A DNA stretch of 64,000 bases from contig JBMNIW010000004.1 in NCBI GenBank assembly GCA_050951325.1, forward strand, positions 105,173 to 169,172. The letters run 5' to 3'. Under the pieces are notes generated by a model. The model saw only the letters and a program-made list of their open reading frames with translations, was not told where the DNA came from and did not search any database. Source of the DNA: Clostridia bacterium. Its GTDB lineage: Bacteria; Bacillota; Clostridia; UBA1212; DUPL01. Shown in pieces: positions 42,830 through 61,270 of the stretch; position 1 is the first letter of the stretch; each line of letters opens with the position of its first letter. Position numbers and translations under genes: made by a program.

Positions 42830-45800
42830 CTACTCCTCAACCTTTTCAGCATGCTTCAAATACGTTTCCTTAATAAGTTCCGCACTTAGATCGCCGCCAT
42901 CTGCAAAGTCATCATCGCCAGACACATCATATTCCAAATCCTTGGTCAACAAATCAGCATTGTCATCTTTCATTTCCACCAAATCAGGATTTTCCTCTTC
43001 CCTCTTGGGTCGGTACTTGTCCGGATTCTTGATATAGTCTTCCTCGGTTTCCTTAATCGGAATTTCTTCTCCTTCTTCAGTGAAGATCTTCACATCAAGG
43101 GCAAGGCTTTGCAGTTCCTTGACAAGAACCTTGAACGACTCTGGTATTCCTGGTTCAGGAACATTTTCTCCCTTGACAATCGCTTCGTATGTTTTTACTC
43201 GTCCTACCGTATCGTCGGACTTGATTGTCAGAATCTCCTGCAATGTGTAAGCAGCTCCGTAAGCTTCGAGAGCCCAAACCTCCATCTCTCCGAAACGCTG
43301 GCCACCAAACTGGGCTTTTCCACCAAGAGGCTGCTGGGTTACAAGTGAGTATGGTCCGGTGCTTCTTGCGTGAATCTTGTCGTCGACCAGATGGAAGAGC
43401 TTCATGTAGTACATGTATCCGACTGTTACGGAGTTGTCAAACTCTTCTCCCGTTCTGCCGTCTCTGAGTATGGTCTTTCCGTGCTCGGGGAGACCCGCCT
43501 TGCTCAGAGTATTCATGATGTCATCCTCGGTAGCACCGTCAAATACTGGAGATGCAACCTTCCAGCCCAGCGCTCTTGCTGCATATCCCAGGTGAACCTC
43601 CAGAACCTGACCCAGGTTCATTCGTGAAGGAACGCCCAGAGGATTCAATACAACATCCAATGGAGTGCCGTCCGGCAGGAATGGCATATCCTCTTCAGGA
43701 AGTATTCTGGATATAACGCCCTTGTTACCGTGACGTCCCGCCATCTTGTCGCCAACTGAAAGCTTTCTCTTTTGTGCAACATATACTCTAACAAGCTTGT
43801 TTACGCCAGGTGCAAGATCATCGTCATGCTCCCTTGTGAACACCTTGACATCCACAACGATACCTGACTCTCCATGAGGCACTCTGAGGGAAGTGTCTCT
43901 TACATCCCTTGACTTCTCACCGAAGATTGCACGCAAGAGTCTTTCTTCAGCTGTAAGTTCGGTCTCCCCTTTTGGAGTAACCTTTCCTACTAGAATGTCT
44001 CCTGCCTGAACTTCAGCACCGATGTGAATGATACCTTCATGGTTGAGATATCTCAAAGCGTCCTCGCCTACGTTGGGTATTTCGTTTGTGATCTCCTCAG
44101 GACCAAGCTTGGTATCCCTGGCTTCGCATTCATACTCTTCTATGTGTATTGATGTGTATACGTCTTCTTTTACCAATCTCTCGCTTATAAGGACGGCGTC
44201 CTCATAATTGTAGCCTTCCCATGTCATAAACCCTATAAGCACGTTCTTTCCAAGGGCAATCTCGCCATTGTCGGTGGATGGACCGTCAGCAATTACTTCG
44301 TCCTTCTTAACCCTTTCGCCAATCCTTACAACAGGCTTCTGATTTATGCAGGTTCCCTGGTTGGAACGCATGAACTTCAGCATATTGTATGTGTCAATCT
44401 TGCCATTGTCTCTTCTTATGGTTATATAGTTGCTGGTAACGTCAACAACCTCGCCGTCTGCCTTGGCAATGACAACGGCTCCGGAGTCCCTTGCAGCCTT
44501 GTATTCAATACCAGTAGCAACAATGGGTGCCTCACTGCGGAGAAGCGGCACTGCCTGCCTCTGCATGTTGGAGCCCATGAGTGCACGGGATGCGTCGTCG
44601 TTCTCAAGGAATGGAATCATTGCTGCTGCTACGGAAACAACCTGTTTTGGCGAAACGTCCATGTAGTCAACCTTGTCAGATTCAACCTCTATAAACTCAT
44701 CCCTGAAACGGCAGACAACCTTCTTGTTTACGAATCTGCCTTCTTCGTCCAGAGGTTCGTTTGCTTGTGCAATTACATAGTTGTCCTCTTCGTCAGCCAT
44801 CAGGTAATGTATCTCGTCTGTTACCTTGCCTGTTTCCTTGTTAAATTTACGATAAGGGGCCTCAATAAATCCGTACTCGTTGATTCTCGCGTATGTACTC
44901 AGCGAGCCAATAAGACCGATGTTTGGACCTTCAGGTGTCTCAATTGGACACATCCTGCCATAGTGCGAGTAGTGGACGTCACGAACCTCAAAGGTTGCCC
45001 TGTCCCTATTCAAACCACCAGGTCCCAATGCACTGAGTCTTCTTTTGTTCGCAAGTTCAGCAAGCGGGTTTGTCTGATCCATGAACTGTGACAGCTGGCT
45101 GGAGCCAAAGAACTCCTTGATAGCTGCAGTTACAGGTCTTGTGTTGATGAGAGCCTGTGGAGTAACGGCATCCATGTCCTGCATTGCCATACGCTCCTTT
45201 ACAACACGTTCCATTCTGGACAAACCAATTCTAAACTGGTTCTGTAAAAGCTCTCCTACCGCCCTTACTCTTCTGTTGCCTAAATGATCTATGTCATCTA
45301 TTTGTCCCAAATCATACTGCAAGCACAGCATGTAGTTAATTGTGGCTACTATGTCTTCTCTTGTAATATGTTTTGGAATCAGCTCGTTAATTCGTGTTTC
45401 AAGTTGAACCTTGAGCTCATTCTCATCGTCGGTTGATTCAAGTATTTCCATAAGCACGTCAAAATAGACATGCTCGTTTATTCCCACTTCAGCAGGATCA
45501 AAATCGAGATATGCCTTTGCATCAACCATCTTGTTGCCGATGATCTTTACAGGTCTGTATGGAGTCATTACATTAACTTCATTAAGACCACTGTTTTGTA
45601 TATCCCAAGCTGTTTTTTCGTCAATCAGCTTGCCAGCCTCAACAAGAATCTCTCCTGTTTGAGGATCTACAATATCACCTGCCGCTGCCTTTCCAGTTAT
45701 TCTTGCAGCAAGTGAAAGCTTTTTGTTAACTTTGTATCTTCCAACCCTTGCAAGGTCATATCTTCTTGGATCGAAAAACATGCTTTCAAGCAGTGTCCTT

Positions 45801-46642
45801 GCATTGTCAACCAGAGCGGGCTCGCCTGGACGGAGTCTCTTGTATATCTCAATAAGGGCTCTGTCTTCTCCATTGTCCTCCGCAGAATCCTTGTCAAGAG
45901 TATTCATTACACGCTCGTCTTTAATCCAGCCGTCATCGGAATCGTCAAAGCCGTCAGCTGTTGCTTCTTCCTTGTTAACGGACAAAAGCTCTATGATCTG
46001 GTCATTGGTTCCGTAACCAATAGCCCTCAAGAGCTGGGTTGCAGGCATTTTTCTATTCCTGTCAATCCTAACGTATATGACATCGCTATGATCAATTTCG
46101 AACTCAAGCCATGCTCCTCTGTTTGGTATGAGGGTTGATGTTGTGATGTACTTACCCTTGGTCTTGTCGTATGTTCTGTCAAAATACACGCCTGGAGACC
46201 TTACCAGCTGGCTAACTATTACCCTTTCGGCGCCATTCATAATAAATGTACCGTTTTCCGTCATCAGCGGAAACTCACCAAAGTATATAGTGTCGGTTTC
46301 TTTTACAATACCTGTCAGTTTGTTCAGAATACGGGCTTTTACCCTGAGAGGAGCCGCATAAGTTGCGTCTCTTTCCTTGCACTCCTCTATTGTATAAGGA
46401 GCCTTGTCTTCCTCTATAACGTAATCGACAAATTCGAGCACCAAATTACCGGAATAGTCCGTTATAGGTGATATGTCTCTAAAAACTTCTTTAAGTCCAA
46501 CATCCTTAAAATGCTGATATGAATCTTTCTGAACAGCTATAAGGTTGGGCATCTCAAGAATTTCGTTAATCTTGGAATAACTCTTTCTTGTAGTTCGGCC
46601 GTACTGTACATCCTTAACATTAACATCAACATCTTGCACCAT
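42830..46642 (-). CDS. rpoB: RNA polymerase beta subunit
   Basis: [25 protein letters not shown] and the RRDR region. Confidence 0.99.
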
Positions 46643-46766
46643 ACTGATTGTTCACCCCAAATTCAATTTTTTGCTACCATACCTTATTATTCCACATTAT
46701 TCCTTGTGTTAAACAAGCTATTTGGTTGATGTTCATACAAAAATATGTCAGAACAAATATTTTTTA

Positions 46767-46795
46767 TTGCCATCTATATTTTTGTGTGCTATAAT
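46767..46795 (+). promoter_or_regulatory. Near-consensus sigmaA promoter antisense to the rpoB leader
   Basis: TTGCCA-N17-TATAAT with extended TG; no + strand gene follows before the IS. Confidence 0.55.
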
Positions 46796-46867
46796 ATCCT
46801 TGTAACTTCACCATATTTAACTTAAAAACATAATAAAGCCTAAAAAGAGATTGCAGCGCAGTTTATT

Positions 46868-46897
46868 ATTCTATCACTTAAATAATAACAAAGTCAA
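46868..46897 (-). promoter_or_regulatory. sigmaA promoter of rpoBC
   Basis: TTGACT-N18-TAGAAT with extended TG. Confidence 0.65.
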
Positions 46898-46940
46898 CAG
46901 GTAATAATTAAAAACCTGCTGATTAATTGTTAACATTCTA

Positions 46941-47162
46941 TTAACTCTTTTCATCTGGGAACCGTTTATTAGCTTGTTTTACTGCAATGATAGTTGCTAT
47001 GATAAAACTAGCTATGCTGGACAAAATAAATGCCAATGTCCAGTTGAAGCCTTTGCCATCTCCATTATCCTCTGGTTCAGGTGAAGTATCGGCATTTGCC
47101 GCCACTGGCATCATATTAACGAATAAAAAAAGAACCAACAATATTGAAACTGTTTTAGACAT
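46941..47162 (-). CDS. Small membrane protein (signal peptide plus one TM)
   Basis: 73 aa, GGGGG SD, own promoter at 47198-47226. Confidence 0.65.
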   Translation of the reverse strand: MSKTVSILLVLFLFVNMMPVAANADTSPEPEDNGDGKGFNWTLAFILSSIASFIIATIIAVKQANKRFPDEKS

Positions 47163-47197
47163 ATAGCCCCCGATATTATAATATTGGATACTAACCT

Positions 47198-47226
47198 ATA
47201 ATATCACAATTAAAAAAAATATACAA
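47198..47226 (-). promoter_or_regulatory. sigmaA promoter (extended -10) of the small membrane protein gene; IS1634 target
   Basis: TTGTAT-N17-TATTAT with TG at -15/-14. Confidence 0.65.
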
Positions 47227-47407
47227 CATAAATTTTTCTATAAAAAAAAGAGGTGGATTTCCACCTCAATTCGATAGTTTGACACTTGCTCACATATCCG
47301 ATTTTCAGAAAAGCTCATATTATGACAATGTCATTAACTTAAGAGATCGCAATACATGTTTTGTTGCGATCTCTTAGTTTATTTCAAATCTTAAATTAAC
47401 TGGCACG
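47203..47407 (+). repeat. 205-bp target-site duplication of IS1634-a (second copy 49444-49649); the first 69 bp are also the duplication of the composite element (third copy 60084-60152)
   Basis: Direct comparison: identical except one extra G in the A-run of the 49444 copy. Confidence 0.95.
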
Positions 47408-49443
47408 CCCTAGTTTAACAGTTAATCTTTCAATTTAAATTGCATAAATGCCCTAAATAACGCCAATTTGGCGCTTTTTTTATGTCAAATAATTTACATT
47501 TTTATGTTGACAATAGTTGACAATTATGATATAATGTAACCGACTATTTCTTGGAGGTGCTGTTGGATGTTTCTGAGAATAACCAAGCAGAAGAACGGCA
47601 GGATTAATCTATGTTTCGCTGAAGGATATCGTGACCCTGTCACAAAAAAAGTTAAACATAGGATTATCGAGAATCTGGGCTATTTGGATGAATATATTGA
47701 TCGTTACGAGGATCCAATAGCGCATTTTAAAGAGATTGCACGCATTCGCACCCAGGAACTTAACGAGGAAAAAAGGAAAAAGGAAATATTTCTGGGTACT
47801 ATTTCTGAAGGCGAGACCATGGAAGTGAACGAAGATTCCTTGCAGCACATGGGATTCCTTCCTCTAAGCTCAATTTACCATCAGTTAAAAATCGACAAAT
47901 TCATTATCAATCGTCAACGAAGCCTGTCCATGGATTATTCGCTAAACGATGTTATGCAATTGTTGGTGTATACAAGGATTCTATCTCCAGGATCCAAGAT
48001 AGACAGTTACAGACAAAAAGAACGTATGGCTAAAGATTTCAAATGTGATTGGTATGATGTTTATCGTGCATTGGACTATTTTGCATCTTTTCGAGATGAC
48101 CTTCTCCTCCATCTTCACGAGCAGGTCAGAATCAACTATCAACGTAAAACTGATGTTGTTTTTTACGATGTCACAAACTTTTACTTTGAGATTGACAAAG
48201 AGGATGAATTTCGTCGCAAGGGTTATTGCAAGCACAATACACGAAATCCGCTAGTGCAAATGGGACTGCTTCTTGATTCTGATGCTATTCCAATAGCGTA
48301 TCAGTTATTTAAAGGGAACACCCATGACAGTCAGACAATGATGCCGCTGTTGCATAAAATACGTGCCAGTTATGGACTGGGTAGAATAATTACCGTAGCA
48401 GACAAAGGATTGAATAGCGGAGACAACATCGCATTTCTCATGGCCAAAGGAGATGGATTCATATTCTCTCAGAAAATACGGGGAGCTTCCAAAGATCTGC
48501 AAGACTATGTTTTTGATCAGTCAGGATATGTAGATGTGCACGGGATAGTAAAACATGCTGATGCATGGAACGAAAGGAATGGCAACCAAGACAGCGGATT
48601 GTTCCGCATGAAATCACGACTATATCCACAGGAATTCTGGGTAACTCATGCAGATGATGTCAAACGCAAAATACCGTTGGATGTAAAACAGATTGTATGT
48701 TACAACGAGCTTTATGCAAGACGCCAGAAGCACAAGAGGGCTGAACTTATTGCCAAGGCCAAAAGAATCATAGAAAATCCCAAACGCTATGATAAGAGTG
48801 AGGCAGGTGGGGCATTACGATATGTAAAAAACATTGAATATGACCCGGAAACTGGTGAGTACATTAAAACCAGGCGTTTACCCAGCCTGGATGAAGACAG
48901 GATTGCGGAAGACGAAAAGTATGATGGCTACTATGCAATCATTACAAGCGAACTGGATATGCCAGACCATGATGTCGTCAAAGCATATCACGGTCTTTGG
49001 GAGATAGAACATAGTTTCAGGATTACTAAAAGCGATATTGAAGCCAGACCTGTTAATGTTACACTCGAGCAAAGGATAGATGCCCACTTTCTTACATGTT
49101 TTATAGCATTGCTAGTCTTAAGGCTTTTGTGTAAACGACTGGACGGAAAGTATGCCCCTGAACAGGTACTCAAATCTTTGAGAAATTATCAGGTTTGTTG
49201 GATTAAGGACAATGTATACAAGGCAACCTACTATGACCGAAATACTAAAAGATTTGGGTGAGGATTTGAATTTGAGACTGGATAGACGCTTCCTAAAAGC
49301 AGGCGACATCAGGCAACTGATTGCAGATACCAAAAAGTGACCATAAATACACAACATTTTTCTGAAATAAATAAAACCTCACAAACCCACTAATTACAAG
49401 GGTTTATGGAGGTTTTTTCTAAATTCTAACTGTTAAACTCAAG
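47408..49443 (+). mobile_element. IS1634-family element (IS1634-a)
   Basis: Imperfect 17-bp TIRs CCCTAGTTTAACAGTTA / TAACTGTTAAACTCAAG; 205-bp DR; promoter TTGACA-N17-TATAAT at 47507-47535. Confidence 0.93.
47567..49340 (+). CDS. IS1634-family DDE transposase with a 1-bp frameshift near the C-terminus
   Basis: FYDVTNFYFE, VADKG, DGYYAIITS, YHGLWEIEHSFR. Track ORF ends at 49261; another frame continues ILKDLGEDLNLRLDRRFLKAGDIRQLIADTKK* to 49340. Confidence 0.9.
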
Positions 49444-49567
49444 ATCACAATTAGAAAAAAATATACAACATAAATTTTTCTATAAAAAAAAGAGGTGGAT
49501 TTCCACCTCAATTCGATAGTTTGACACTTGCTCACATATCCGATTTTCAGAAAAGCTCATATTATGA

Positions 49568-51276
49568 CAATGTCATTAACTTAAGAGATCGCAATACATG
49601 TTTTGTTGCGATCTCTTAGTTTATTTCAAATCTTAAATTAACTGGCACGGTATTTTATTGATCCTTCTAATACACTTTATCTTTGTCTTGTTACAGATTT
49701 AAAAAATGACATAAAAAAGTTAAGTTATAGTTTATAACAATAACTCTTGCTATGTAAATATTAGGAATATGGAAAACTAGGAGTTTCTTTTAATATTATT
49801 AAAGAACCTCTTGCTTTTTGCATTTTTGTGTCTGTTGAAAGAACGCCCTTTTCTTACAGGTATAAGTTCTGATTGTATTTCTTTTATGACTTTCTCGAAT
49901 AAGATTCTGCGTTCAACATCACTATCAGTTGCTACAAATCCTATTAGTTCATCCCTCATTACTCCGATTGCGAAGTTTTTATTTATAGTCATAACATGTT
50001 TGTATTTGTTAAGTTTTCCCTCACGCTTTAACGATTCTTCGGCATCTCGAATAACATCTTGGATAATGTTACACAGATATACTGTCGCATATATATCTTG
50101 TTCTATAAGTAACGGTTTTGTTCCTGTAAAATTTTCGATTTCTAATTTGTTTTTTAAGGTATCATATACTGTTTCTATTGCCCATCGCATAAAATACAAG
50201 TCCGAAATTTCTTTGGTATTGAACTCTTCTTGGCTTAAATTAGTAGCAAGATACTCAGTTTCACCGGAAGATAAATGCACGCGTACAAATCTTACAAACA
50301 TAGAACCAACAGTACGTAGTTTCTCTGCAAACTTTGTATTTCGATAAGGGTTAATACGGGTCTGATCAAATTTTATCTCAATAATTTCATCATCGGAAGT
50401 CATAGACGATTGCTCTCTTTTGAACTGCGAAGAGCTTAACCTCATGAGAAATTTTTGTCCCTTCTCGAATCGATTAAGCATATTTTCAATTGAAGGATAA
50501 CCTCTATCAAACAAAACGATAAAGGCTTTGTCTTCAATAATTTCAGCAATGTTATCAATATTCTTCTCGGCAGCAGCACGTTCGTCAAAATTATTCCTGT
50601 TAATAGATATATCTAAAATAAATTCATTACACACATCGTATATACAAGAAAGACCAATCTGTGCAGTAGGCTTTGCAGATGGCACCGAGGAGTTACCATA
50701 TAATTCTAGAGTTTCTTTATTTGTGGGTATAGTAATATTACTACCGTCAACAGCGAGAACTAAATAATTCTTAATTGTTCTTGCTGTCTCTTCGTTGTAG
50801 AAATTCTTTAAATGAAAGCTATTCAAAGCGAGAAAAGCTTTGGGATCAAGCTTTAAACGTTGTTTTAAATACGCTACTTTTGATACAGTTTTGTCATCTT
50901 GTTTCATCTTTAAATATCTCCTGATTTCAAGTTTCAATGAAAAACCAACTCGAGTAATGGTAGATAGAATGATATCAAACATAGTTAACTTCCTTTTTCT
51001 TGTGAAGTCAGTGCTTTTTTGCCTATATGTTTTTTTGAACTCTTCTTTCTGCGCATACTCCAGGTCTTTTTCTAATCTAATCTTAGATAATAATTTTAAC
51101 ATCTTATACTCCCCATTTCTAGCAAAATCGAGAGTATTAAATAATATTTAAAATTTAACAACTCTGTATTATTTTATCATATTTGTTTTAAAATGTAAAA
51201 CTGAAAATGTGATAAAAAGACCCTAACCGAATAAGTTAGGGTTCTTTAAAACGAGTTTCTTAAGTTAATGACATTG
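49568..51276 (-). mobile_element. IS4-family element
   Basis: Perfect TIRs CAATGTCATTAACTTAAGA / TCTTAAGTTAATGACATTG; 10-bp TSD CATATTATGA at 49558-49567 and 51277-51286. Confidence 0.95.
49777..51102 (-). CDS. IS4-family DDE transposase
   Basis: FTRKRKL, LAVDGS, FDRGY and YFMRWAIETVYDTLK (YREK motif). Confidence 0.95.
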   Translation of the reverse strand: MLKLLSKIRLEKDLEYAQKEEFKKTYRQKSTDFTRKRKLTMFDIILSTITRVGFSLKLEIRRYLKMKQDDKTVSKVAYLKQRLKLDPKAFLALNSFHLKNFYNEETARTIKNYLVLAVDGSNITIPTNKETLELYGNSSVPSAKPTAQIGLSCIYDVCNEFILDISINRNNFDERAAAEKNIDNIAEIIEDKAFIVLFDRGYPSIENMLNRFEKGQKFLMRLSSSQFKREQSSMTSDDEIIEIKFDQTRINPYRNTKFAEKLRTVGSMFVRFVRVHLSSGETEYLATNLSQEEFNTKEISDLYFMRWAIETVYDTLKNKLEIENFTGTKPLLIEQDIYATVYLCNIIQDVIRDAEESLKREGKLNKYKHVMTINKNFAIGVMRDELIGFVATDSDVERRILFEKVIKEIQSELIPVRKGRSFNRHKNAKSKRFFNNIKRNS

Positions 51277-51997
51277 CATATTATGAGCTTTTCTGAAAAT
51301 CGGATATGTGAGCAAGTGTCAAACTATCGAGTTATATTTTTTAGTTTACAATCTTTTTATACGTTAATGTTATGATTATTCACAAGAATTCATAGAAAAT
51401 CTGTCTTAAGTATATTGACATTCATTGGTGTAGTGTGATAAATATATGTGTGAAAAAGTAATTAAATTTATCGAGGAGGTATGGCAGCTATGTACATTTT
51501 TTATTCAAGCAGTGGCGGTTTATCAAATGATCTGAGATGCCTCCGTGTAGATGAAGTGAGGTACAATCTTCTTATCATTTCTTAGGCGCATAAACCGCTG
51601 ATTCGGACGGTTTATGCGTTTTTTTCTTCCGAATATTGCAATAGTTTTATTTTCGTTTTATTTCGATTTATATTTTTGAATAAGGAGGCACACGATGAAA
51701 CATAGGTTATTTTCTCGTTCTATAGCTTTGCTCGTTGTTTTCGGGTTATTGCTGACTGGCTCTATTTTGCCAGTTTCGGCAACTACAATTTCCGAAGTTG
51801 TCGATTCATCGAACAATCTCATTCTTGATGGAGATTTGATCAAAGATGACAACTTTATAATTTCCGATGAAATCATTCTTCGCGCAGATGATCCAAGCAT
51901 TGCGGAAGAAAGTATGATTTTGAAATACGTTGACAGTGCGCAGTTTAATGCAGCACGCCATACTCAACGACTCACAGATTTGGAAGATCTAAATACA
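51277..51997. repeat. 721-bp inverted repeat; partner arm 57446-58166
   Basis: Reverse complement of 57446-58166: 53 bp of the IS1634-b left end, promoter/leader and the first 101 codons of the large cargo gene. Confidence 0.95.
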
Positions 51998-52015
51998 CAG
52001 AACTGTAGGATGTAA
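51695..52015 (+). pseudogene. Truncated inverted duplicate of the 5' end of the 57748 cargo gene
   Basis: First 101 aa identical (MKHRLF...EDLNT), then QNCRM* past the junction. Confidence 0.9.
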
Positions 52016-52033
52016 TGTCAATTTTTAGAGCAT

Positions 52034-52072
52034 AAAAAACGCCAGCTCTGAGTGTAAACTCGGAGCTGGCGT
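52034..52072 (-). terminator. Terminator of the cargo genes
   Basis: ACGCCAGCTC(C)GAG-loop-CTC(A)GAGCTGGCGT followed by a T-run on the minus strand. Confidence 0.85.
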
Positions 52073-52087
52073 CATATTGGTATCCAT

Positions 52088-53506
52088 CTATAAAAGTATT
52101 AACTCTACTGATTGGTCAATAACGATATCTTCTTTGATAATAAAATAAAGCATTGACCTTAAATCCGATTGATCAATATGCTTCAAAATAATTGTTGAAA
52201 TTATGCAACGATCGGCATCGTTTTCGAGTTCCGGGTAGTTTTCCAGATCCTCCGGGGAATAAGTAAGGATCAAATTTTTTACAGCAGAATTGAGTGTTCC
52301 ATTCTTAATTTCAAATTGGATACCGACTGTTTCGCCATTAGCCAGAGAATTCTGTACTTTTTCGATAGCACTGTCAATATACGTTTCAAGCATATTGTCA
52401 GGAATATCCTTTGAAATTCCTGCCCGATAATCATCAATGACAGATAAATATAGCTGCACACGCTGATCTTCGCTCATTCCGGTTTCACAATAAGGAAGCT
52501 TGGTTCGCTGATTGGTATAGTTATGCTGGCAAAACATTTCGACTTCGCCTGTCATGCCCCAGGAATTATTGCTTGCGAGAGAGTCGTATCGTTCTTGTGT
52601 GCTGAATGCGAAATAATCCATATTGTCGTGGGCAAGGTGTGGTGCCTGCCAACAAGCATCAAAGTGATACCACTGTCCTCCTATGCAAATCATCGACCAT
52701 GCGTGGTCTGCTCCTTCGAATCCGTCTTTTCCCAAAGAGCGGGCCAAGATTGTTTCGAATCCGATCTGGTTTGCAAGCATATTCAGATAGCTGGCATATT
52801 CTACACATTCGCCCATTTTATAGATGATGCAGTTATACAAATCGGGGTGAACACCGTAAGTCTGGTAGGGGGAGCCATAAATCATGTGCTCTGAAACATA
52901 CAAATACAGCTTTGCAATGCGCGACCAATCACTGTCGTCTTCCTGAATCAGCGATAGTGCTTCATTCATGATTTTTTCAAAGGAACGATAATTTTCTTCG
53001 CAAATTACTTCGTTTGCTTTGAATTTTAGTATTAAAGTACTGTTTTCGTATAAAAATGGTTCGCTGGAATCAGCGTAGGTTTGAATCAGGCTTCTTACCG
53101 GAACAAATTCAGAAAGTAAAAAACGCCAAAGCTTCCATGCTTCATCTTCCGATGCAAGGCCTTCCACAACGCCGTTGTAAGACAAAATGGAATCTATCAT
53201 TTTACAATAGAGCGAATATTCTCGCTCCGTATAATACGACTGCGCATCGGCAGATATCATATACGGATCATATTGGAACAACGGCTCCGAATCGGCTGGG
53301 GGCGGATCAGGGATCGTTGGCGTTGTGGGCAGAGAAGTTTCCTGCGTTGGTTCGCTGCCTTGAGATTCATAGCCGGAAGAAGGGCAACTGCTCATTTGCG
53401 AGGGGACAGAAGTGTTTGGGGTATTGTCGATTTGTGCGCTATTACACCCCGTTACAGATGCCAAAATCAATATAAGGGACAGTATTATTGTCAAGATTCT
53501 TTTCAT
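52088..53506 (-). CDS. Transglutaminase-like domain lipoprotein
   Basis: Lipobox VTGC, Ser/Pro/Thr linker, catalytic triad motifs GECVEYA, HAW and WYHFDACW. Confidence 0.85.
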   Translation of the reverse strand: MKRILTIILSLILILASVTGCNSAQIDNTPNTSVPSQMSSCPSSGYESQGSEPTQETSLPTTPTIPDPPPADSEPLFQYDPYMISADAQSYYTEREYSLYCKMIDSILSYNGVVEGLASEDEAWKLWRFLLSEFVPVRSLIQTYADSSEPFLYENSTLILKFKANEVICEENYRSFEKIMNEALSLIQEDDSDWSRIAKLYLYVSEHMIYGSPYQTYGVHPDLYNCIIYKMGECVEYASYLNMLANQIGFETILARSLGKDGFEGADHAWSMICIGGQWYHFDACWQAPHLAHDNMDYFAFSTQERYDSLASNNSWGMTGEVEMFCQHNYTNQRTKLPYCETGMSEDQRVQLYLSVIDDYRAGISKDIPDNMLETYIDSAIEKVQNSLANGETVGIQFEIKNGTLNSAVKNLILTYSPEDLENYPELENDADRCIISTIILKHIDQSDLRSMLYFIIKEDIVIDQSVELILL

Positions 53507-53876
53507 AACTATACCTCTCAAGATATCCAAATTAAAATACATTTCTTATACGCTCTATTGTGTACTCATGTTTTATCATTTGCTGCTCGATCTATATTAC
53601 GCTTTATAATCAGTTCCTTTGCAGCTAACGATAATATTTGGGGCGTATCCTGCAGGGGTAATAACAATATCAGAGTAATATTCACGCTCATTTTCTCGAA
53701 GTGCCGAAGACAACTCATTACTGGATTTGCTAATTTTCAAGCAGTTAAATAATTAATCCTGTCTAATCCTTTGGGTTCAATTCAAAAAATATATCCGTTT
53801 TTTAGTTGATATTTTTGATATTCACAAAAAAATATGCCAAGGCTTCTCTTTTGGAACAAAGACACTTGACAGACTA

Positions 53877-53911
53877 TACAGTCTCACGCAACATTGTTGC
53901 GTGAGACTGTA
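53877..53911. repeat. 35-bp palindrome (17-bp arms, 1-nt centre)
   Basis: TACAGTCTCACGCAACA-T-TGTTGCGTGAGACTGTA. Confidence 0.9.
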
Positions 53912-53979
53912 ATTAGCGACACAGAAGTTTTGCTACCATAGTCTATGTGTCTGAATTTTTACAGCTAAATCGCTTTGGG

Positions 53980-54480
53980 TTAATTTTTAGTAACATGATA
54001 CCACCCACCTTGAATTGATTTCACTTTCACTTTTGAATTTTCGCTTGGGGAATTCACCCACGATGGCTTTTGGTCGGGAGAATATACAAGAGCATATTCT
54101 CCGTTAGAAATACAAAATGAAATCCGATTCTCATGAATCCTAATGGTATCAAAAATCGAATCCTTGTCAGGAAATGCATTGTTGCGTATTGAAGTAAGAG
54201 ATGATACGACATCACTTGGTAAGATTAAATAACTTTTAGTTTCCGGATCAAATAATGTAACTTCTCCATTCCCATCATTTGAAACAGATAGCCACTTGTC
54301 AGATTTGTCAGGAAATGCTTCGGTAATATAATTTTTAACCAAATCAAAGTCATTTGCAAACTTTTCATAATCAGCAGAGTATTTCCAAAAATGATTATAA
54401 CTGACTATCATCAATTCAATACCGAAGATCGCAATAACGCCTATCATCAGCGTTGTTAAAATCCAGATTATTTTTTTCAT
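53980..54480 (-). CDS. Membrane-anchored hypothetical protein (candidate immunity/partner protein)
   Basis: N-terminal TM; AAGGGG SD; lies about 50 bp downstream of the DUF3289-like gene. Confidence 0.7.
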   Translation of the reverse strand: MKKIIWILTTLMIGVIAIFGIELMIVSYNHFWKYSADYEKFANDFDLVKNYITEAFPDKSDKWLSVSNDGNGEVTLFDPETKSYLILPSDVVSSLTSIRNNAFPDKDSIFDTIRIHENRISFCISNGEYALVYSPDQKPSWVNSPSENSKVKVKSIQGGWYHVTKN

Positions 54481-54530
54481 AGAAATATTGGCCCCTTTCC
54501 ATATTTGAATTTGTGCATATTTGTAAACAC

Positions 54531-57500
54531 TTATGAAATTGTTCCGGATACCCTGACATCAAATTCAATCATAGTTAGAAAAGGTTTATATGCTGAGTCA
54601 TATGCTGCATAATGTTGTAACACATACCACGAGCGAAACCAGCCAATGGACCGTATTTTTCCACATCTGCTTGATCTAAACCAAAATGGTCATATAAGGT
54701 GTAGTGTAGCGTGTATGAATAACTGTTTCCACTAATGTTGTACGAAGTTACTTCAATTTTGTTGCCCCACAAACCATCTATGCATATAGTCAATCCGTTG
54801 ATTTTATCAGATGCAGTATTGTAAACCGGTTGATATACATTATTAGCTTTTAGTGCTATAATTAAAGGATTTGATTCTCTATTGTTGGCGGTATATGCAA
54901 ATTCTGAGATATCTCCATTATATGTGTTAAGCAACGTTTCAAGCTGTTCCTCAACATTTTTAATGTATTCCTGAGTAGAGTTATGTTCATAAGCTTTCTG
55001 TGTCAAAACACTATTACTATACGTTGAGCCAGTTCCATCCATAAAATGGTCAATCATATCAAGAACAACCGTTTGAAGTTCCCCCGTAGAGAAAAGCGAA
55101 GTACACATATATTCCCAATCAGCTCTGTGAAGCGCAGGTGTATAGCCGGTGAAATCAATCCAGCTGACCCAGTCTAATGCACCAAGCTCGTCTTTCGTCA
55201 TATCACCGCACGTTAAATCTTCTGCATAATTACCATTTGCATCATGATAGTATGTGTTTTCAGTTTGATATATTAGCAAAGCAGAAACATTTACCGTATA
55301 ACTAACATAGTGATATGCGCTGTTTCTGTACACACGACCAGTAATGGTTGCTTTACCAGTGGAAACACCTGTAACGGCACCGTTAGAATCAACTGTAGCA
55401 ACGGTGGTATTACTGGAACTCCAAGTAAAGTTCTGACTAAGATTTGTTCCAGAGTAAGCAACAGCACTCAACTGTAGAGTCGAAAGACTTTTGGTTGTTC
55501 CGACATCAACAGCTCTTGTGGCGGTAGTGACAATTGCTTCTTTCGATGTGTCATATAAATATGCTCCGGCGGGAGGCGAGGAAACCTTAGTCAATCCCCA
55601 ACGACAATTCGTACTGGTCGAATATGTAGAGGCTATAACGGTTGCTCCAGACGAAGTAGATGCATTTTCAATTTGCATTGTCTTGCTATCGCTGCCATTA
55701 TTCTTGAATACATATCCTGTAGAATACCAACTAATTGTCCATTCACCATAAGACGGCACACTGGATAATGTATCGGATGTACCGATGTTGTAGATATCTA
55801 CATTGCTCCCAGTAACATCCAAACCCTTGTCTAATTTGTTCAAAGGCCTAATGCTATAGCGACCGTTCCCTAAATAATATGTTTTCCACATCTGACGAAT
55901 TCTATAATTGTTGCTTGTGGAATCAGAATATTTTGAGAATTGATATACATCAGTGAAATTTGCAATTCCACCATATTTTACATGCAAATAGTAATTCGAA
56001 TTCAGATTTTTAATATGGTAAACTCCATTAGCAATATATACATATACCGTACATGTGGCCGTGCGTGTTATGCCATCGGCGTCAACCATGCTGGCTGTGA
56101 TGGTAACGGTTCCTGCTTTTTTGGCAGTTACAACACCGGAAGAACTAACTGTTGCAATGCTACTGTTGCTTGTAGTCCATGTTACAGTCTGTCCACTCGG
56201 TTTTGTGGTTGCTACAAGAGTCCTTGTTCCTCCTTCTACAATCGAAGCACTTGTATAATTCAAAGAGATTGCCGTATCATATGTCATAACGACATATGGA
56301 CGGGAAGAGGAAGTGGAATACTCAGAAGAACAGAAGCATTTGTCATTTGCCTCATTTTCATTTGTCATAATGAAGCCGGCATTCGCTGAATATGTTCCGT
56401 TTTTCCATGCCTTAACCAAATTGGTTATGTCAAACGCCGTCCATTGACCGTTGTACATCGTATTTCCATAGTTAACCGATGTAGTATGAGAGCCAATATT
56501 ATTCCATGTTACTGATGTTTCTGTCCAAGTCGTATTGCTTGTAAGCGGATATAGGTTTATGTAATGAGTTGTTCCACCAGACGCTTCTTTGGCATAGAAT
56601 GTTACGTTTGTAATTTGATTTGCAGTAATGGTTTGATATTCATTCGAACTTGTCAAACCGCTGAGTTTTACTACGGTTCTTCCGATTCCGTATGCTTCGG
56701 AAGGTGTTCCGACACGATTGTATACGTATGTGCCGAAATTTCTGTCGGGATAGCCTTCAAAAATCGGAGAATCAATAATCGAGCCACTTGTATCTCTGTC
56801 AGAAACGGTAATTGAAGGATCCACGGTAACAGGGTACACAGTAGTAGGATCAGAGAGAAATTCATCATTGGCAATAACAGTCAACAAGTATTCTTGCCCC
56901 TCTGATATTGTCTCAACCGTCATAGTTCCTATGTCCGGCTTGCCAACGGCATCGTAAATAAGAATTTCACCGAGATAGAATACCGGATCAGCTTTAACGC
57001 TGTCAGCCAAATAATAACCGTTGTCACCGTTATAAAGAGTCAGCCCATCAGTTTCCAACACAAAGGTATAGGTTGCATCATCTGTGTATTCAGTTAAAAC
57101 AATGTCCTCTTTTACGCCCGAAAGCATCGGCGTATACACCAGTTTAGTGTTCTCACCGTATGCTTCATCGTATACGACTGAATTATCAGACTGAACTGCG
57201 GATGCAGCGGTTGCCAATCCTTGCGGAGTCAGTTTGATAGCAAAACTGGAATACTCAAAATCGATGCCGTGTACAGGATTGGTAGGAATAAGCAACTCTA
57301 TATTGCTTTGAGTAATTCCGAAGCCGCCAGCCTTGTTTATCAGAGAAATATCCTTTTCTTTGATAACTCCGTTCTTGTCTATGTATTTCACATTTTCATG
57401 CATCATATAGACAGAACGAGTTCCATCGGCGTTAGCAAATACATATGTATTTAGATCTTCCAAATCTGTGAGTCGTTGAGTATGGCGTGCTGCATTAAAC

Positions 57501-57748
57501 TGCGCACTGTCAACGTATTTCAAAATCATACTTTCTTCCGCAATGCTTGGATCATCTGCGCGAAGAATGATTTCATCGGAAATTATAAAGTTGTCATCTT
57601 TGATCAAATCTCCATCAAGAATGAGATTGTTCGATGAATCGACAACTTCGGAAATTGTAGTTGCCGAAACTGGCAAAATAGAGCCAGTCAGCAATAACCC
57701 GAAAACAACGAGCAAAGCTATAGAACGAGAAAATAACCTATGTTTCAT
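54531..57748 (-). CDS. Secreted multidomain protein: DNRLRE-like, Big_2 Ig, ricin-type lectin, Ig and C-terminal DUF3289-like domain (1-bp frameshift near the end)
   Basis: Signal peptide; GVKEDIVL...YPVTVDPS; FDITNLVKAW; VTWTTSNSSIATVSSSGVVTAKKAG; YHIKNLNS...QMW; YDHFGLD. Shifting frame at ~54636 gives GF-RSWYVLQHYAAYDSAYKPFLTMIEFDVRVSGTIS* ending at 54531. Confidence 0.8.
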
Positions 57749-57817
57749 CGTGTGCCTCCTTATTCAAAAATATAAATCGAAATAAAACGAAAATAAAACT
57801 ATTGCAATATTCGGAAG

Positions 57818-57856
57818 AAAAAAACGCATAAACCGTCCGAATCAGCGGTTTATGCG
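57818..57856 (-). terminator. Intrinsic terminator in the leader of the cargo gene (copy at 51587-51625 +)
   Basis: CGCATAAACCG-N10-CGGTTTATGCG-T7. Confidence 0.8.
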
Positions 57857-57857
57857 C

Positions 57858-57953
57858 CTAAGAAATGATAAGAAGATTGTACCTCACTTCATCTACACGG
57901 AGGCATCTCAGATCATTTGATAAACCGCCACTGCTTGAATAAAAAATGTACAT
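57858..57953 (-). CDS. Putative 31-aa leader peptide (copy at 51490-51585 +)
   Basis: GAGGAGGT SD 9 nt before ATG; MYIFYSSSGGLSNDLRCLRVDEVRYNLLIIS*; stop abuts the terminator. Confidence 0.5.
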   Translation of the reverse strand: MYIFYSSSGGLSNDLRCLRVDEVRYNLLIIS

Positions 57954-58113
57954 AGCTGCCATACCTCCTCGATAAATTTAATTACTTTTTCACACATATA
58001 TTTATCACACTACACCAATGAATGTCAATATACTTAAGACAGATTTTCTATGAATTCTTGTGAATAATCATAACATTAACGTATAAAAAGATTGTAAACT
58101 AAAAAATATAACT

Positions 58114-60083
58114 CGATAGTTTGACACTTGCTCACATATCCGATTTTCAGAAAAGCTCATAATATGAGCTTTTTTTATATATTTTTTGTCAAATTTCCCT
58201 AGTTAGCTATTGCGTAATGTCTCGTAATGTGATATAATATCAGGTATTGGAGGTGTCATTATGGCTATTAGAGTATCAATATCTAAATCAAAAAATGCCA
58301 AGTCATACTATCTGATAGAAGATGTTGTGAAAAATGGAAAGAGAACAACGCAGATAAGAGAAAAACTTGGCACTCATGAGGAACTGCTTAAAGAACTTAA
58401 CGGACAAGATCCGTATGAATGGGCTAAGAAATACGCCGAGGAACTAAATAGAAAAGAAAAAGAAAACAAACAGGAAAAGAATATTATCGTTAAGTATTCC
58501 CCCACCAAGCAAATTATGAAGAATAAACAGAATACATTTAATGGCGGTTACCTGTTCTTGCAGAAAATCTATTATGAACTGGGTTTGCATAAGATTTGCG
58601 ATGAAATATCTGAAAAATACAAGTTTGAATATGACTTGAACTCAATACTCTCGAGACTACTATACAGTAGAATAATATACCCTTCCTCAAAACTATCTAC
58701 GTATAAATTATCAAAAAGATTTTTTGAGCAGCCCAATTTTGACTTGCATCATATATACCGGGCCTTAAGTGTTTTGGCGGAAGAAAATGATTTCATACAA
58801 GCCACAATCTATGAGAACAGTAAAAAAATATGCAATAGAAATACCAAAATACTATACTACGACTGTACAAACTATTATTTTGAAATTGATTACGAGGAAG
58901 ATGACAAGAGGTATGGTTATGGGAAGGATCATAAGCCAAATCCCATAGTGCAAATGGGACTGTTCATGGACGGAAGCGGCATCCCTCTTGCTTTTAGCAT
59001 CAATAGAGGTAATGCCAATGAACAAACAACAATGGTACCACTGGAAGAAAAGATACTATCTGACTTTAATCTGGCAAAATTTATTGTTTGTACAGATGCC
59101 GGATTGTCATCAACAGCAAACCGGAAATTCAACGACAAAGGCGACAGGGCTTTTATCACAACCCAGTCTGTAAAAAAACTAAAAGAACACTTGAAAAACT
59201 GGGCCTTGAAACCGACGGGATGGAGTTTGCCAAATGACAGTACAGAATATGACATCAGCAAACTTGATGAAGAAGAATACAAGGACAAGGTCTTTTACAA
59301 AGATCGTTGGATTAAGGAAGACGGTTTGGAACAGAAGCTAATAGTGACATTTTCATTCAAGTACAGAAAATATCAACAGCAAAAGCGCCAAGTTCATGTC
59401 GAAAAGGCATTAAGCTTGCTTGAAACAGAACCGCAAAAATCAAACAAGAAGCGAAACAGCGACTACAAACGTTTTATCAAAAGCGTTAATTGCACAGAAA
59501 GTGGAGAGATAGCCGATAATGAAGTTTATTATATTGACGAAGAACTTATTGCCAACGAGCAGAAATATGATGGGTTCTATGCGGTATGCACAAACCTTGA
59601 TGATGATGCTTCAGAAATTGCAAAAATCAACCATAGACGCTGGGAAATAGAAGAATGTTTTAGAATAATGAAAAGTGAGTTCAAAGCCAGACCTGTTCAT
59701 TTGAAAGACAAGGATAGGATACTTGCACATTTTGCTACATGTTTTATGGCATTAATTCTGTATAGAATACTCGAGAAAAGACTTGAAGAAAAATATACAT
59801 GCTGTGAAATTATTCAGTGTTTGAGAGATATGAATTTTACAGACGAAAATGGGTACGGATACAAACCTTGTTATACAAGAACCGACTTGACTGATGATTT
59901 GCATAACGTTTTCGGATTCAGGACTGACTATGAAATAATTACAGAGAAAGAGATAAAAAAAATATTCAAGCTCACTAAAAAGTAAAAACATTACGCATTT
60001 TTATTGACACATTAAGAAGTCTACAAACCCACTAAATACAAGGGTTTGTAGACTTTTATCTTTCTACAAGTGTCAAAGATGAG
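58114..60083 (+). mobile_element. IS1634-family element (IS1634-b)
   Basis: Imperfect TIRs CGATAGTTTGACACTTG / CAAGTGTCAAAGATGAG; promoter TTGCGT-N17-TATAAT at 58210-58238. Confidence 0.93.
58261..59985 (+). CDS. IS1634-family DDE transposase (intact)
   Basis: YYDCTNYYFE, CTDAG, DGFYAVCTN, HRRWEIEECFR and AHFATCF motifs. Confidence 0.95.
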   Translation: MAIRVSISKSKNAKSYYLIEDVVKNGKRTTQIREKLGTHEELLKELNGQDPYEWAKKYAEELNRKEKENKQEKNIIVKYSPTKQIMKNKQNTFNGGYLFLQKIYYELGLHKICDEISEKYKFEYDLNSILSRLLYSRIIYPSSKLSTYKLSKRFFEQPNFDLHHIYRALSVLAEENDFIQATIYENSKKICNRNTKILYYDCTNYYFEIDYEEDDKRYGYGKDHKPNPIVQMGLFMDGSGIPLAFSINRGNANEQTTMVPLEEKILSDFNLAKFIVCTDAGLSSTANRKFNDKGDRAFITTQSVKKLKEHLKNWALKPTGWSLPNDSTEYDISKLDEEEYKDKVFYKDRWIKEDGLEQKLIVTFSFKYRKYQQQKRQVHVEKALSLLETEPQKSNKKRNSDYKRFIKSVNCTESGEIADNEVYYIDEELIANEQKYDGFYAVCTNLDDDASEIAKINHRRWEIEECFRIMKSEFKARPVHLKDKDRILAHFATCFMALILYRILEKRLEEKYTCCEIIQCLRDMNFTDENGYGYKPCYTRTDLTDDLHNVFGFRTDYEIITEKEIKKIFKLTKK

Positions 60084-60122
60084 ATCACAATTAAAAAAAA
60101 TATACAACATAAATTTTTCTAT

Positions 60123-60148
60123 AAAAAAAAGAGGTGGATTTCCACCTC
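60123..60148 (-). terminator. rplL terminator (duplicated at 47242-47267 and 49484-49509)
   Basis: GAGGTGGA/TCCACCTC stem followed by T8 on the minus strand. Confidence 0.85.
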
Positions 60149-60170
60149 AATTTTTGTTACATCAAAATAA

Positions 60171-60557
60171 TTACTTGACTTCTACTTCAGCTCCAGCTTC
60201 CTTAAGCTTCTCTGCAATTGAATCAGCTTCTTCCTTGGAAACATTCTCTTTGATTTCCTTTGGAGCACCATCAACGATAGCCTTAGCTTCCATCAATGCA
60301 ACGCCAGTAACTTCCCTAACTGCCTTGATAACATTCATCTTGTTAGGACCAACGTTTTTCAGAACTACTGTAAACTCAGTCTGCTCAGCTTCTGCAGGAG
60401 CGTCAGCACCTGCTGCAGCTGCTGGTGCCGCAACTGCTACTGGAGCTGCTGCTGATACACCAAACTCTTCCTCTAATGCCTTTACGAGCTCTGCAAGCTC
60501 AAGTACTGTCAATGCCTTTACATCTTCAATCAATTTTGTAACTTTCTCACTAGCCAT
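60171..60557 (-). CDS. rplL: 50S ribosomal protein L7/L12
   Basis: [23 protein letters not shown]; EQTEFTV. Confidence 0.99.
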
Positions 60558-60619
60558 TTTTATATTCCTCCAATTTTATTTTTTAGTTTAATAATGTAAG
60601 TTTTTAATTTTTATTTTTC

Positions 60620-61153
60620 TTAGGCACCCTGCTTCTGTTCTTTTATAGCATTGAGCGCCACTACCAGTCCTCTGATATTTCCGTTAAGAACATTTACGAA
60701 ACCAGTAATCGGGGCGTTGAATCCACCGAGTACCTTGGCAATAAGAACTTCCTTTGTTGGAAGCGAAGCCAAAGCCTTAACACCATCCACACCAACTACT
60801 TCACCTTCAAGGATTGCTCCTTTCAGTTCGAGCTTCTTATGCTCCCTTGCAAAGTTAGACAGAATCCTTGCCGCCACTGCCACATCCTCTTCATGAGTTG
60901 CGATGGCTGTAGGTCCTGTAAACAGTAAAGTACTGTCAGCTACACCTATTTTTTCAGCTGCCTTGATAGCCAGAGTGTTCTTTGTAACCTTGTAGGTTAC
61001 GCCACTCTTTCTCAATTCAGCTCTCAGTTTTGTATCTTCCTCAACTGTCAGGCCTCTGTGGTCAACCACGACAATTGCAGGTGATTGTGAAAACCTTTCA
61101 GCAATCTTATCTACTTCTGCTTGTTTTTGTTTTAAAATTCTATCACTTGGCAC
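60620..61153 (-). CDS. rplJ: 50S ribosomal protein L10
   Basis: GTG start after a GGAGGTG SD; RGLTV, KNTL and FTGPTAIA motifs. Confidence 0.97.
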   Translation of the reverse strand: MPSDRILKQKQAEVDKIAERFSQSPAIVVVDHRGLTVEEDTKLRAELRKSGVTYKVTKNTLAIKAAEKIGVADSTLLFTGPTAIATHEEDVAVAARILSNFAREHKKLELKGAILEGEVVGVDGVKALASLPTKEVLIAKVLGGFNAPITGFVNVLNGNIRGLVVALNAIKEQKQGA

Positions 61154-61171
61154 TAATAACACCTCCTTAAT

Positions 61172-61270
61172 AAAAAACCCTTCTCGAACATACACAAAGA
61201 CACACGAAAAGGGCTAACAGGAAACATCCCTCGGCAGGAATTACGCATGTTCTGCACCTGCTGTCTTCGG
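61172..61270 (-). ncRNA. L10 leader (ribosomal protein autoregulatory RNA)
   Basis: CCGAAGACAGCAGG...AATTCCTGCCGAGG followed by a terminator-like hairpin and T-run upstream of rplJ. Confidence 0.85.

Follow-up and report, generated by a model that had tools for sequence, protein, structure and literature searches.

Right-end junctions at a -10-like hexamer in IS1634-family insertion sequences, with two elements joined to one base between rplL and rpoB in a Clostridia genome

Introduction

Insertion sequences (ISs) of the IS1634 family usually generate AT-rich target duplications of 5–6 bp, as stated in a passage of De Palmenaer et al. (2008; PMC2266710), and a further passage of the same paper gives duplications of 8–514 bp for IS1549 and IS1634 themselves, for which it offers 'no mechanistic model'. 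These two founding elements, from Mycobacterium smegmatis (IS1549) and Mycoplasma mycoides (IS1634), carry transposases of the same family as the elements described here, are likewise about 2 kb long with imperfect terminal inverted repeats and, as far as the quoted passages go, make long variable direct repeats as well. The present work concerns two such elements, termed IS-a and IS-b, which lie between the ribosomal protein gene rplL and the RNA polymerase gene rpoB of a Clostridia bacterium (GTDB lineage Bacteria; Bacillota; Clostridia; UBA1212; DUPL01). The DNA analysed, referred to below as the window, is a stretch of 64,000 nucleotides of GenBank assembly GCA_050951325.1 (contig JBMNIW010000004.1, positions 105,173 to 169,172, forward strand), and all coordinates without a contig name refer to it; the complete assembly comprises 12 contigs and 3.08 Mb.

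Typical members of the family, such as ISGka5 and ISPfe2, appear in excerpts of PMC2266710, PMC8024623 and PMC3281130 with an AT-rich target of 5–6 bp. The -10-like hexamer reported below may be this canonical target. Unlike in ISGka5 and ISPfe2, however, the second cut is located 33–417 bp away and not at the far side of the hexamer. The excerpts of PMC8024623, PMC3281130, PMC4549789, PMC11004492 and PMC11448079 that deal with these elements mention 6-bp duplications, clamp binding and intergenic insertions, and contain no target motif. Likewise, a full-text literature search on the IS1634 family returned no TATAAT- or promoter-directed rule, no fixed right-end junction and no one-sided variability, with ISfinder and supplementary end alignments outside its scope, so that a prior description is possible. 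A fixed orientation and offset from a short host sequence, as found here, is described in the pertinent passages on the IS1202 group at dif/pdif sites and on IS elements within REP sequences (PMC10132070, PMC1525189). Those elements belong to other transposase families and use few specialised targets, whereas the motif found here is common to most promoters and the duplication length is not fixed.

Two different elements joined to one base

IS-a (47408..49443, plus strand, 2036 bp, transposase open reading frame (ORF) at 47567-49261) and IS-b (58113..60083, plus strand, 1971 bp, transposase at 58261-59985) are assigned to the IS1634 family by the model NF033559 with 372 and 363 bits, respectively, relative to a cut-off of 100. 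Across the IS1634-type transposases of this genome, those of two further elements, IS-d and IS-e, included, the scores are 372, 363, 321, 295 and 369 bits, and the Pfam domain DDE_Tnp_1 is matched as well. The elements also behave as members of the family, being discrete units of ~2 kb with terminal inverted repeats that occur in multiple copies with identical ends and make long variable duplications. An earlier note on this DNA had claimed that the right ends of IS-a and IS-b are fused to an identical base, 47203, although the elements differ in their ends, their transposases and the lengths of their duplications. Direct reading and a repeat search confirm the claim in all of these respects. 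The transposases share 33% identity, the terminal inverted cores are AGTTTAACAG and TTTGACACTTG, the ends differ in sequence generally, and the last 20–25 nt of the two right ends are unlike each other.

The duplication made by IS-a consists of a left copy of 205 nt (47203..47407) and a right copy of 206 nt (49444..49649), 99.5% identical and distinguished by one indel/substitution in an A-run. The left copy is composite: it combines 69 nt of target, a left-end fragment of IS-b and 82 nt of a third element, IS-c. The duplication made by IS-b spans 68–69 nt on the left (47203..47271), where it contains the rplL terminator hairpin, and 60084..60152 on the right, where it is continuous with the 3' flank of rplL; its length is 69 nt, or 68 nt if a T common to all three IS-b left ends is element sequence. 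The sequence ATCACAATT directly follows both right ends, after ...CTCAAG in IS-a (last base 49443) and after ...GATGAG in IS-b (last base 60083), and CCTATAAT precedes the shared sequence in the left copy, which begins at 47203. Because the shared sequence is preceded by a base that varies among the three contexts (T, G and G), the junction boundary is unambiguous. Both elements are consequently joined at the phosphodiester 47202|47203 of the rplL–rpoB spacer, a coincidence that random choice of target would produce in about 1 of 10^6 cases per insertion.

A hexamer at the right-end junction

Insertions of related elements were collected in three scans of contigs from one genome per species with an alignment of four transposases, each scan led by a different one and yielding 80 loci; 13 more loci came from an earlier scan. 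Loci were included when they held a full transposase gene and flanks of at least 300 nt on both sides, and direct repeats abutting both conserved ends were sought. The IS-b clade contributed 51 loci with good flanks, of which 25 repeats were kept (3 touching contig ends were dropped), the IS-a clade 40 loci and 19 repeats (dropped: L165 and L173 at contig ends, and L145, a 17-nt match of 94%), and the IS-d clade 33 loci and 16 repeats (L199 was dropped). Together with six from the genome studied here, the window site counted once, these 60 survey repeats give 66 targets, no two of which are alike. Repeat lengths run from 33 to 417 bp with a median of ~118 bp; repeats of 14–18 bp are detectable by the method, and none shorter than 33 bp occurs in the set. 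The lengths display no helical phasing (best Rayleigh R 0.23 at 10.3 bp, P = 0.65). Long repeats were also observed for spirochaete elements (L016-L019, L178, L246), reaching 271–415 bp in one Sphaerochaetaceae genome, and the behaviour is thus not confined to Firmicutes.

A fixed right end combined with a variable left end is real and general across these 66 insertions and three IS1634 clades. At the right-end junction a perfect AT[T/C]ATA is present within 2 nt in 28/66 targets and a match of at least 5/6 in 50/66, relative to null frequencies of 0.7% and 8.7%, respectively, at 513,077 positions of the same flanks. With the stricter ATTATA, applied to the first 50 targets, the corresponding counts are 20/50 and 37/50 against 0.4% and 6.0%. 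Conversely, an equivalent reading of the left-end junction gives background values (2/66 perfect, 9/66 at 5/6 or better). The offset profile has a sharp peak at 0 and -1, and each clade keeps its own register: |ATTATA in relatives of IS-b, A|TTATA in relatives of IS-a and |TATYATA in relatives of IS-d. Read on the opposite strand, the motif is TATAAT and the cut falls directly 3' of the hexamer, i.e. at -7|-6 in promoter numbering, with a shift of one base in either direction in some clades. Joining of the left end takes place on the other strand, 33–417 bp away and always on the promoter-upstream side, and the long direct repeat begins with the hexamer. A host motif that stands at a constant distance and in constant orientation relative to one end, in independent insertions and far more often than in the background, amounts to target-site specificity.

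The earlier note had anticipated a promoter motif of this kind at the right-end junction, and the part of its rule that stands across the 66 insertions is that the right end is located at a -10-like box, that the left end varies upstream, and that the downstream gene keeps a promoter copy. The register it had deduced from the window, between T-12 and A-11, does not carry over, the general cut being directly 3' of the hexamer; its attribution of the first strand transfer to an RNA polymerase complex is weighed below.

The AT-richness of the target regions, together with the position of the IS-b left end only 3–4 nt from the rplL terminator hairpin, might instead suggest that a nearby hairpin or base composition in general directs insertion, and not a -10-like box. 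The survey makes this extremely improbable. A minus-strand terminator-like hairpin is found in only 7/66 repeats, and only 2/66 have a hairpin whose edge is 15 nt or less from the left junction; on these counts hairpin tracking, which the earlier note had put forward as the alternative to promoter targeting, is rejected as a general rule. Moreover, the null for the motif was drawn from the same AT-rich flanks, and the left junction in these same regions is devoid of it.

We consider it probable that IS-a and IS-b are members of a large set of IS1634-family elements with asymmetric integration, the right end being set by the hexamer and the left end free to wander. It is the end distal to the transposase start, the right one, that is joined immediately 5' of AT(T/C)ATA on the joined strand. 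The hexamer would be read by the transposase itself, as suggested by the fact that clades differ both in the exact offset and in the variant they prefer. The second strand transfer would be uncoupled from the first or delayed, with subsequent gap filling producing the repeat. Real promoters would provide the main reservoir of good sites, used or retained preferentially. Following insertion, the downstream gene would keep a complete promoter copy, while the truncated copy would fire into the element, antisense to the transposase gene.

Asymmetric joining would turn the long-duplication puzzle of IS1634/IS1549-type elements into a testable two-step model, since the variability is one-sided. It would also render insertion safe, in that a duplicated promoter region keeps neighbouring genes regulated as before, and would explain how an element is tolerated between rplL and rpoB. 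In practical terms, the rule aids the annotation of such elements and their true ends and predicts places of insertion. A comparable outcome is known from Ty3-type retrotransposons, which integrate at RNA polymerase III transcription start sites: the insertion point is at most one or two bases from a promoter landmark, and the gene stays usable. Ty3, however, is a eukaryotic retroelement tethered by transcription factors, and any protein tether would be hypothetical for the elements described here.

Hexamer versus whole promoter

The surroundings of the site hexamers were compared with control hexamers of equal quality from the same loci, taken outside ATG-initiated ORFs of at least 100 amino acids. 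A TG at -15/-14 accompanies 11/49 site hexamers and 130/1877 controls, and the extended TRTG 8/49 and 21/1877. A -35 element matching at 5/6 or better with 16–18 nt spacing was found for 10/49 as compared with 44/1877, and at 4/6 or better for 22/49 as compared with 289/1877. Similarly, an ORF start led by a ribosome-binding site lies within 150 nt downstream of 25/49 site hexamers and of 481/1877 controls. Overall these promoter features are enriched 2–10 times, with one-sided Fisher p values from 6e-4 to 3e-7, and the enrichment persists for perfect hexamers only (-35 at 4/6 or better, 15/28 vs 42/178; gene start, 17/28 vs 59/178).

These frequencies are among the arguments for a different target, namely the promoter complex. 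The first strand transfer would then be fixed by melting of a -10 box, by sigma/RNA polymerase bound to it or by a transcription-dependent DNA state, and the second end would be placed where free duplex begins upstream. The far higher frequency of TG/TRTG, spaced -35 elements and gene starts at site hexamers than at equal-quality non-ORF controls favours such a target, as do several sites with a poor hexamer that nonetheless lie inside strong-looking promoters at other offsets (L080, L076, L019 and L138, an IS-d copy on contig C5 denoted d_C5, and the window). The lack of repeats below 33 bp points in the same direction, and so does the choice of the same base upstream of rpoB by two different elements despite a weak hexamer. 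Still, we regard a promoter complex as a doubtful target. Offsets and variants are clade-specific, the IS-d clade favouring TATGAT-like boxes and conserving T-10 more than T-7, and the most conserved letter overall is A-8, which is not expected to be the most conserved position of sigma-70-type -10 boxes. About half of the sites with a good hexamer have neither TG nor a good -35. In addition, cutting affects the template strand at -7/-6, a position that is buried in the open complex. Enrichment of promoters could also stem from later selection, e.g. if an antisense promoter silences the element: a truncated copy firing antisense into the element could be favoured, and repeats shorter than ~30 bp could be lost as they cut off the -35 of the gene-serving copy. 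That the transposases physically read melted or sigma/polymerase-bound -10 elements, with the long variable repeats as footprints of promoter complexes, is accordingly rather unlikely. Were it true, these insertion sequences would act as natural, self-insulating 'promoter duplicators', and hot promoters, that of rpoB among them, would be re-hit at the same base; with polymerase involved, the elements would mark active promoters in uncultured bacteria.

Several observations nevertheless speak against hexamer readout by the transposase as the complete explanation. The -35/TG enrichment itself implies a factor beyond the hexamer, which could be polymerase, DNA state or later selection, with the reservation that the controls for this enrichment rest on a crude ORF mask. 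As many as 16/66 targets match at 4/6 or worse, and none of the three right junctions of IS-b in this genome is a good match. In the window the hexamer agrees with the consensus at only 4/6 (5/6 if the ATCATA variant often seen in the IS-d clade is taken as reference). A matrix derived from the other 49 sites places 47203 only 17th among 254 positions in the 127-bp spacer, and neither insertion used a perfect ATTATA located 25 nt away. Of the 124 loci with good flanks, about half (23+18+16) lack a long repeat and are not scorable at both ends, and sites that share a genome, or that stem from related elements, do not sample transposase behaviour with full independence. Finally, no empty site was found: over 46300-60700, no contig from three DNA runs or one RNA run showed a joint across the 12.8-kb block that separates the two IS-b repeat copies. 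Among the loci without a repeat that were inspected, no short duplications were seen.

The site upstream of rpoB

At 47203 the hexamer reads ATCACA, a degenerate form (TGTGAT on the opposite strand), and overlaps the best predicted promoter, one of the TRTG type on the minus strand, TTGTAT-N17-(TGTGa)TATTAT at 47198..47226, in which the junction follows the first T of the -10 box. The string TTGTAT-N17-T|ATTAT, to which the earlier note had drawn attention, is indeed present, with TGTGA in front of its -10 box; it scores only 8/12, below the listing threshold of the consensus scan, and the scan accordingly does not list it. The junction is located five bases upstream of the general register. 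The copy d_C5 resembles the window in this respect, with TTGTAT-N17-TA|TAAT. On account of the weak match at 47203, sequence preference alone does not predict the double hit there. Shared specificity accounts for the kind of place and the orientation, and for the identical base only partly. The double hit would be in keeping with a hot, heavily used promoter before rpoB. One contig of the RNA run spans 46300-47270, contigs being unable to show transcription starts.

A 'flipped site' was also considered, as a perfect ATTATA on the minus strand starts at 47202, the same step as the junction. This candidate was ruled out: TATAAT-like hexamers on the top strand immediately ahead of the cut were found in only 4/50 targets, no more than at neighbouring offsets, and no simple rearrangement was found that converts a canonical minus-strand insertion into the observed structure.

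The compound block and the order of insertions

The DNA from 47272 to 60083 forms a 12.8-kb compound block inserted between rplL and rpoB, in a native spacer of 127 bp. Immediately right of the left 69-nt copy stands a left-end fragment of IS-b (47271..47325, plus strand, positions 1-55, BLAST identity 98% over 55 nt), cut at the centre of the hairpin of IS-b itself. It is followed by the first 82 nt of IS-c (47326..47407, plus strand), 100% identical to other IS-c copies and split from the remainder of that element (49650..51276, minus strand, transposase at 49777-51102 on the minus strand) by IS-a, which is inserted within IS-c 82 nt from its end. IS-c belongs to the IS4 family (NF033592, 150 bits relative to a cut-off of 115), encodes a 441-amino-acid transposase, has an 18-nt perfect terminal inverted repeat and is flanked by 10-bp duplications at two copies; its insertion point here is exactly the loop of the hairpin near the IS-b left end. 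At least three further copies of IS-c are present in the genome (contigs C8, C11 and C12).

The full IS-b stands 10.8 kb right of the left 69-nt copy, behind a 721-nt inverted repeat. One arm of the latter (51277..51997, minus strand) is a 100% identical inverted copy of 57446-58166 and is composed of IS-b left-end positions 1-54 and 667 nt, among them the first 101 codons of a gene for a 1057-amino-acid protein. In the state preceding IS-c, the two IS-b left ends form a palindrome centred on the hairpin loop. The inverted repeat may have arisen from a hairpin-mediated template switch or from recombination between two IS-b copies; a standard replicative inversion does not fit, as both arms abut left ends. 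A metagenome contig with 99.5% identity to this genome, L024, has an intact IS-b attached to the 69 nt, next to the spacer and rpoB, and lacks both IS-c and IS-a; this is a single contig from the metagenome scan and shows the left side only. Because its IS-b left end is joined to the 69-nt repeat, the inner left end at 58114, which the earlier note had adduced as weaker support for promoter targeting, is to be seen as a secondary junction and is set aside.

The likely order of events, as read from the arrangement of the segments, is therefore IS-b, rearrangement, IS-c and last IS-a. Since the IS-a repeat includes IS-b and IS-c sequence, IS-a came later, at the left copy, and by this order it picked base 47203 where no physical mark of the earlier event remained. 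A locus so heavily rearranged, with its 721-nt inverted repeat, its hairpin-centred palindrome and a 69-nt repeat present three times, could in principle have yielded the shared base in the absence of any targeting, the IS-a junction being derived from that of IS-b by recombination, a hybrid element or a shared intermediate; formally, the segment 47272-49443 can be taken for a single element bounded by the left end of IS-b and the right end of IS-a, with the 69 nt on both sides. We deem such an origin very unlikely. The last 20–25 nt of the right ends differ and homologous exchange cannot make IS-a|ATCACA, the late arrival of IS-a found base 47203 unmarked, and IS-a makes ordinary repeats of 51 and 74–76 bp elsewhere. 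The run contigs over 46300-60700 break inside the 69-nt repeat. The 30 closest genomes compared belong to the same taxonomic order only, have an rplL identity of ~75% and were uninformative for the spacer.

Further copies in the genome and in metagenomes

In total, 20 matches to IS1634-type transposases are found in the contigs of this genome. IS-a is represented by four full copies, the three beyond the window being flanked by repeats of 51 bp, of 74–76 bp and by none. IS-b is present as three full and two partial copies, the two further full ones having an imperfect ~252-bp repeat and none, respectively. IS-d has repeats of ~344 and 84 bp, and a third copy is without a simple repeat. At d_C5 the tRNA gene into which the right repeat copy leads is intact, while only its 3' piece is present in the left copy, an arrangement that identifies these repeats as true target duplications. 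Copies without a detectable repeat often show the motif as well, a_C1 being followed by ATTATA and d_C12 by T and ATTATA, and several survey loci are alike.

The ~252-bp repeat of IS-b at L030 (contig C1:285224-287194) is only 94.7% identical, in comparison with 99.6% among IS-b copies, and a paralogous sequence, 84% alike, is found near this copy; the divergence suggests conversion between paralogues or a non-standard origin. For the IS-b copy on contig C8, a match of 31–39 nt located 741 nt upstream was rejected as a duplication and represents a similar paralogous region.

The IS-a copy in the window has two further peculiarities. A 1-nt difference at 49239 shortens its transposase ORF to 564 amino acids, as compared with 590 in the copy on contig C12, and all four public runs have one base fewer at this position than the window; a frameshift close to the 3' end of the transposase gene is probable in this copy. 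Its right junction also creates a promoter-like string on the minus strand (49423-49450, 9/12), with the -35 TTGTGA from the target and the -10 TAGAAT inside IS-a, which points into IS-a, antisense to the transposase gene.

Digester metagenomes contain further IS-a and IS-b insertions with other flanks, visible as loose ends at 47408, 49445, 49510 and 60083, and the run X1 holds an IS-a copy with a repeat of ~30 nt. From these contigs, both elements look active in digester communities, in which this organism also occurs.

Gene context

On the minus strand the genes follow the order rplJ (60620-61195), rplL (L7/L12; 60171..60557), the rplL terminator within the 69-nt repeat, a 72-amino-acid ORF and rpoB (42830..46642), with rplJ and rplL identified by Pfam and rpoB, the essential gene downstream of the target site, by its RNA_pol_Rpb2 domains. 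The terminator hairpin, at 47250-47267, is located inside the left 69-nt copy. The 72-amino-acid ORF (46946..47162, minus strand) has a GGGGG ribosome-binding site and a start codon ~40 nt from the junction; a Pfam search with it gave no match.

Between the inverted arms, the block carries cargo of three genes (51998..57445, minus strand), assigned from Pfam matches and ORFs: a transglutaminase-like protein (52088-53542, minus strand), a 166-amino-acid ORF, and the 1057-amino-acid Big_2/ricin-lectin/DUF3289 protein (54575-57748, minus strand). The last of these looks secreted and includes a ricin-type lectin domain among its domains. The placement of accessory cargo genes between rplL and rpoB is unusual.

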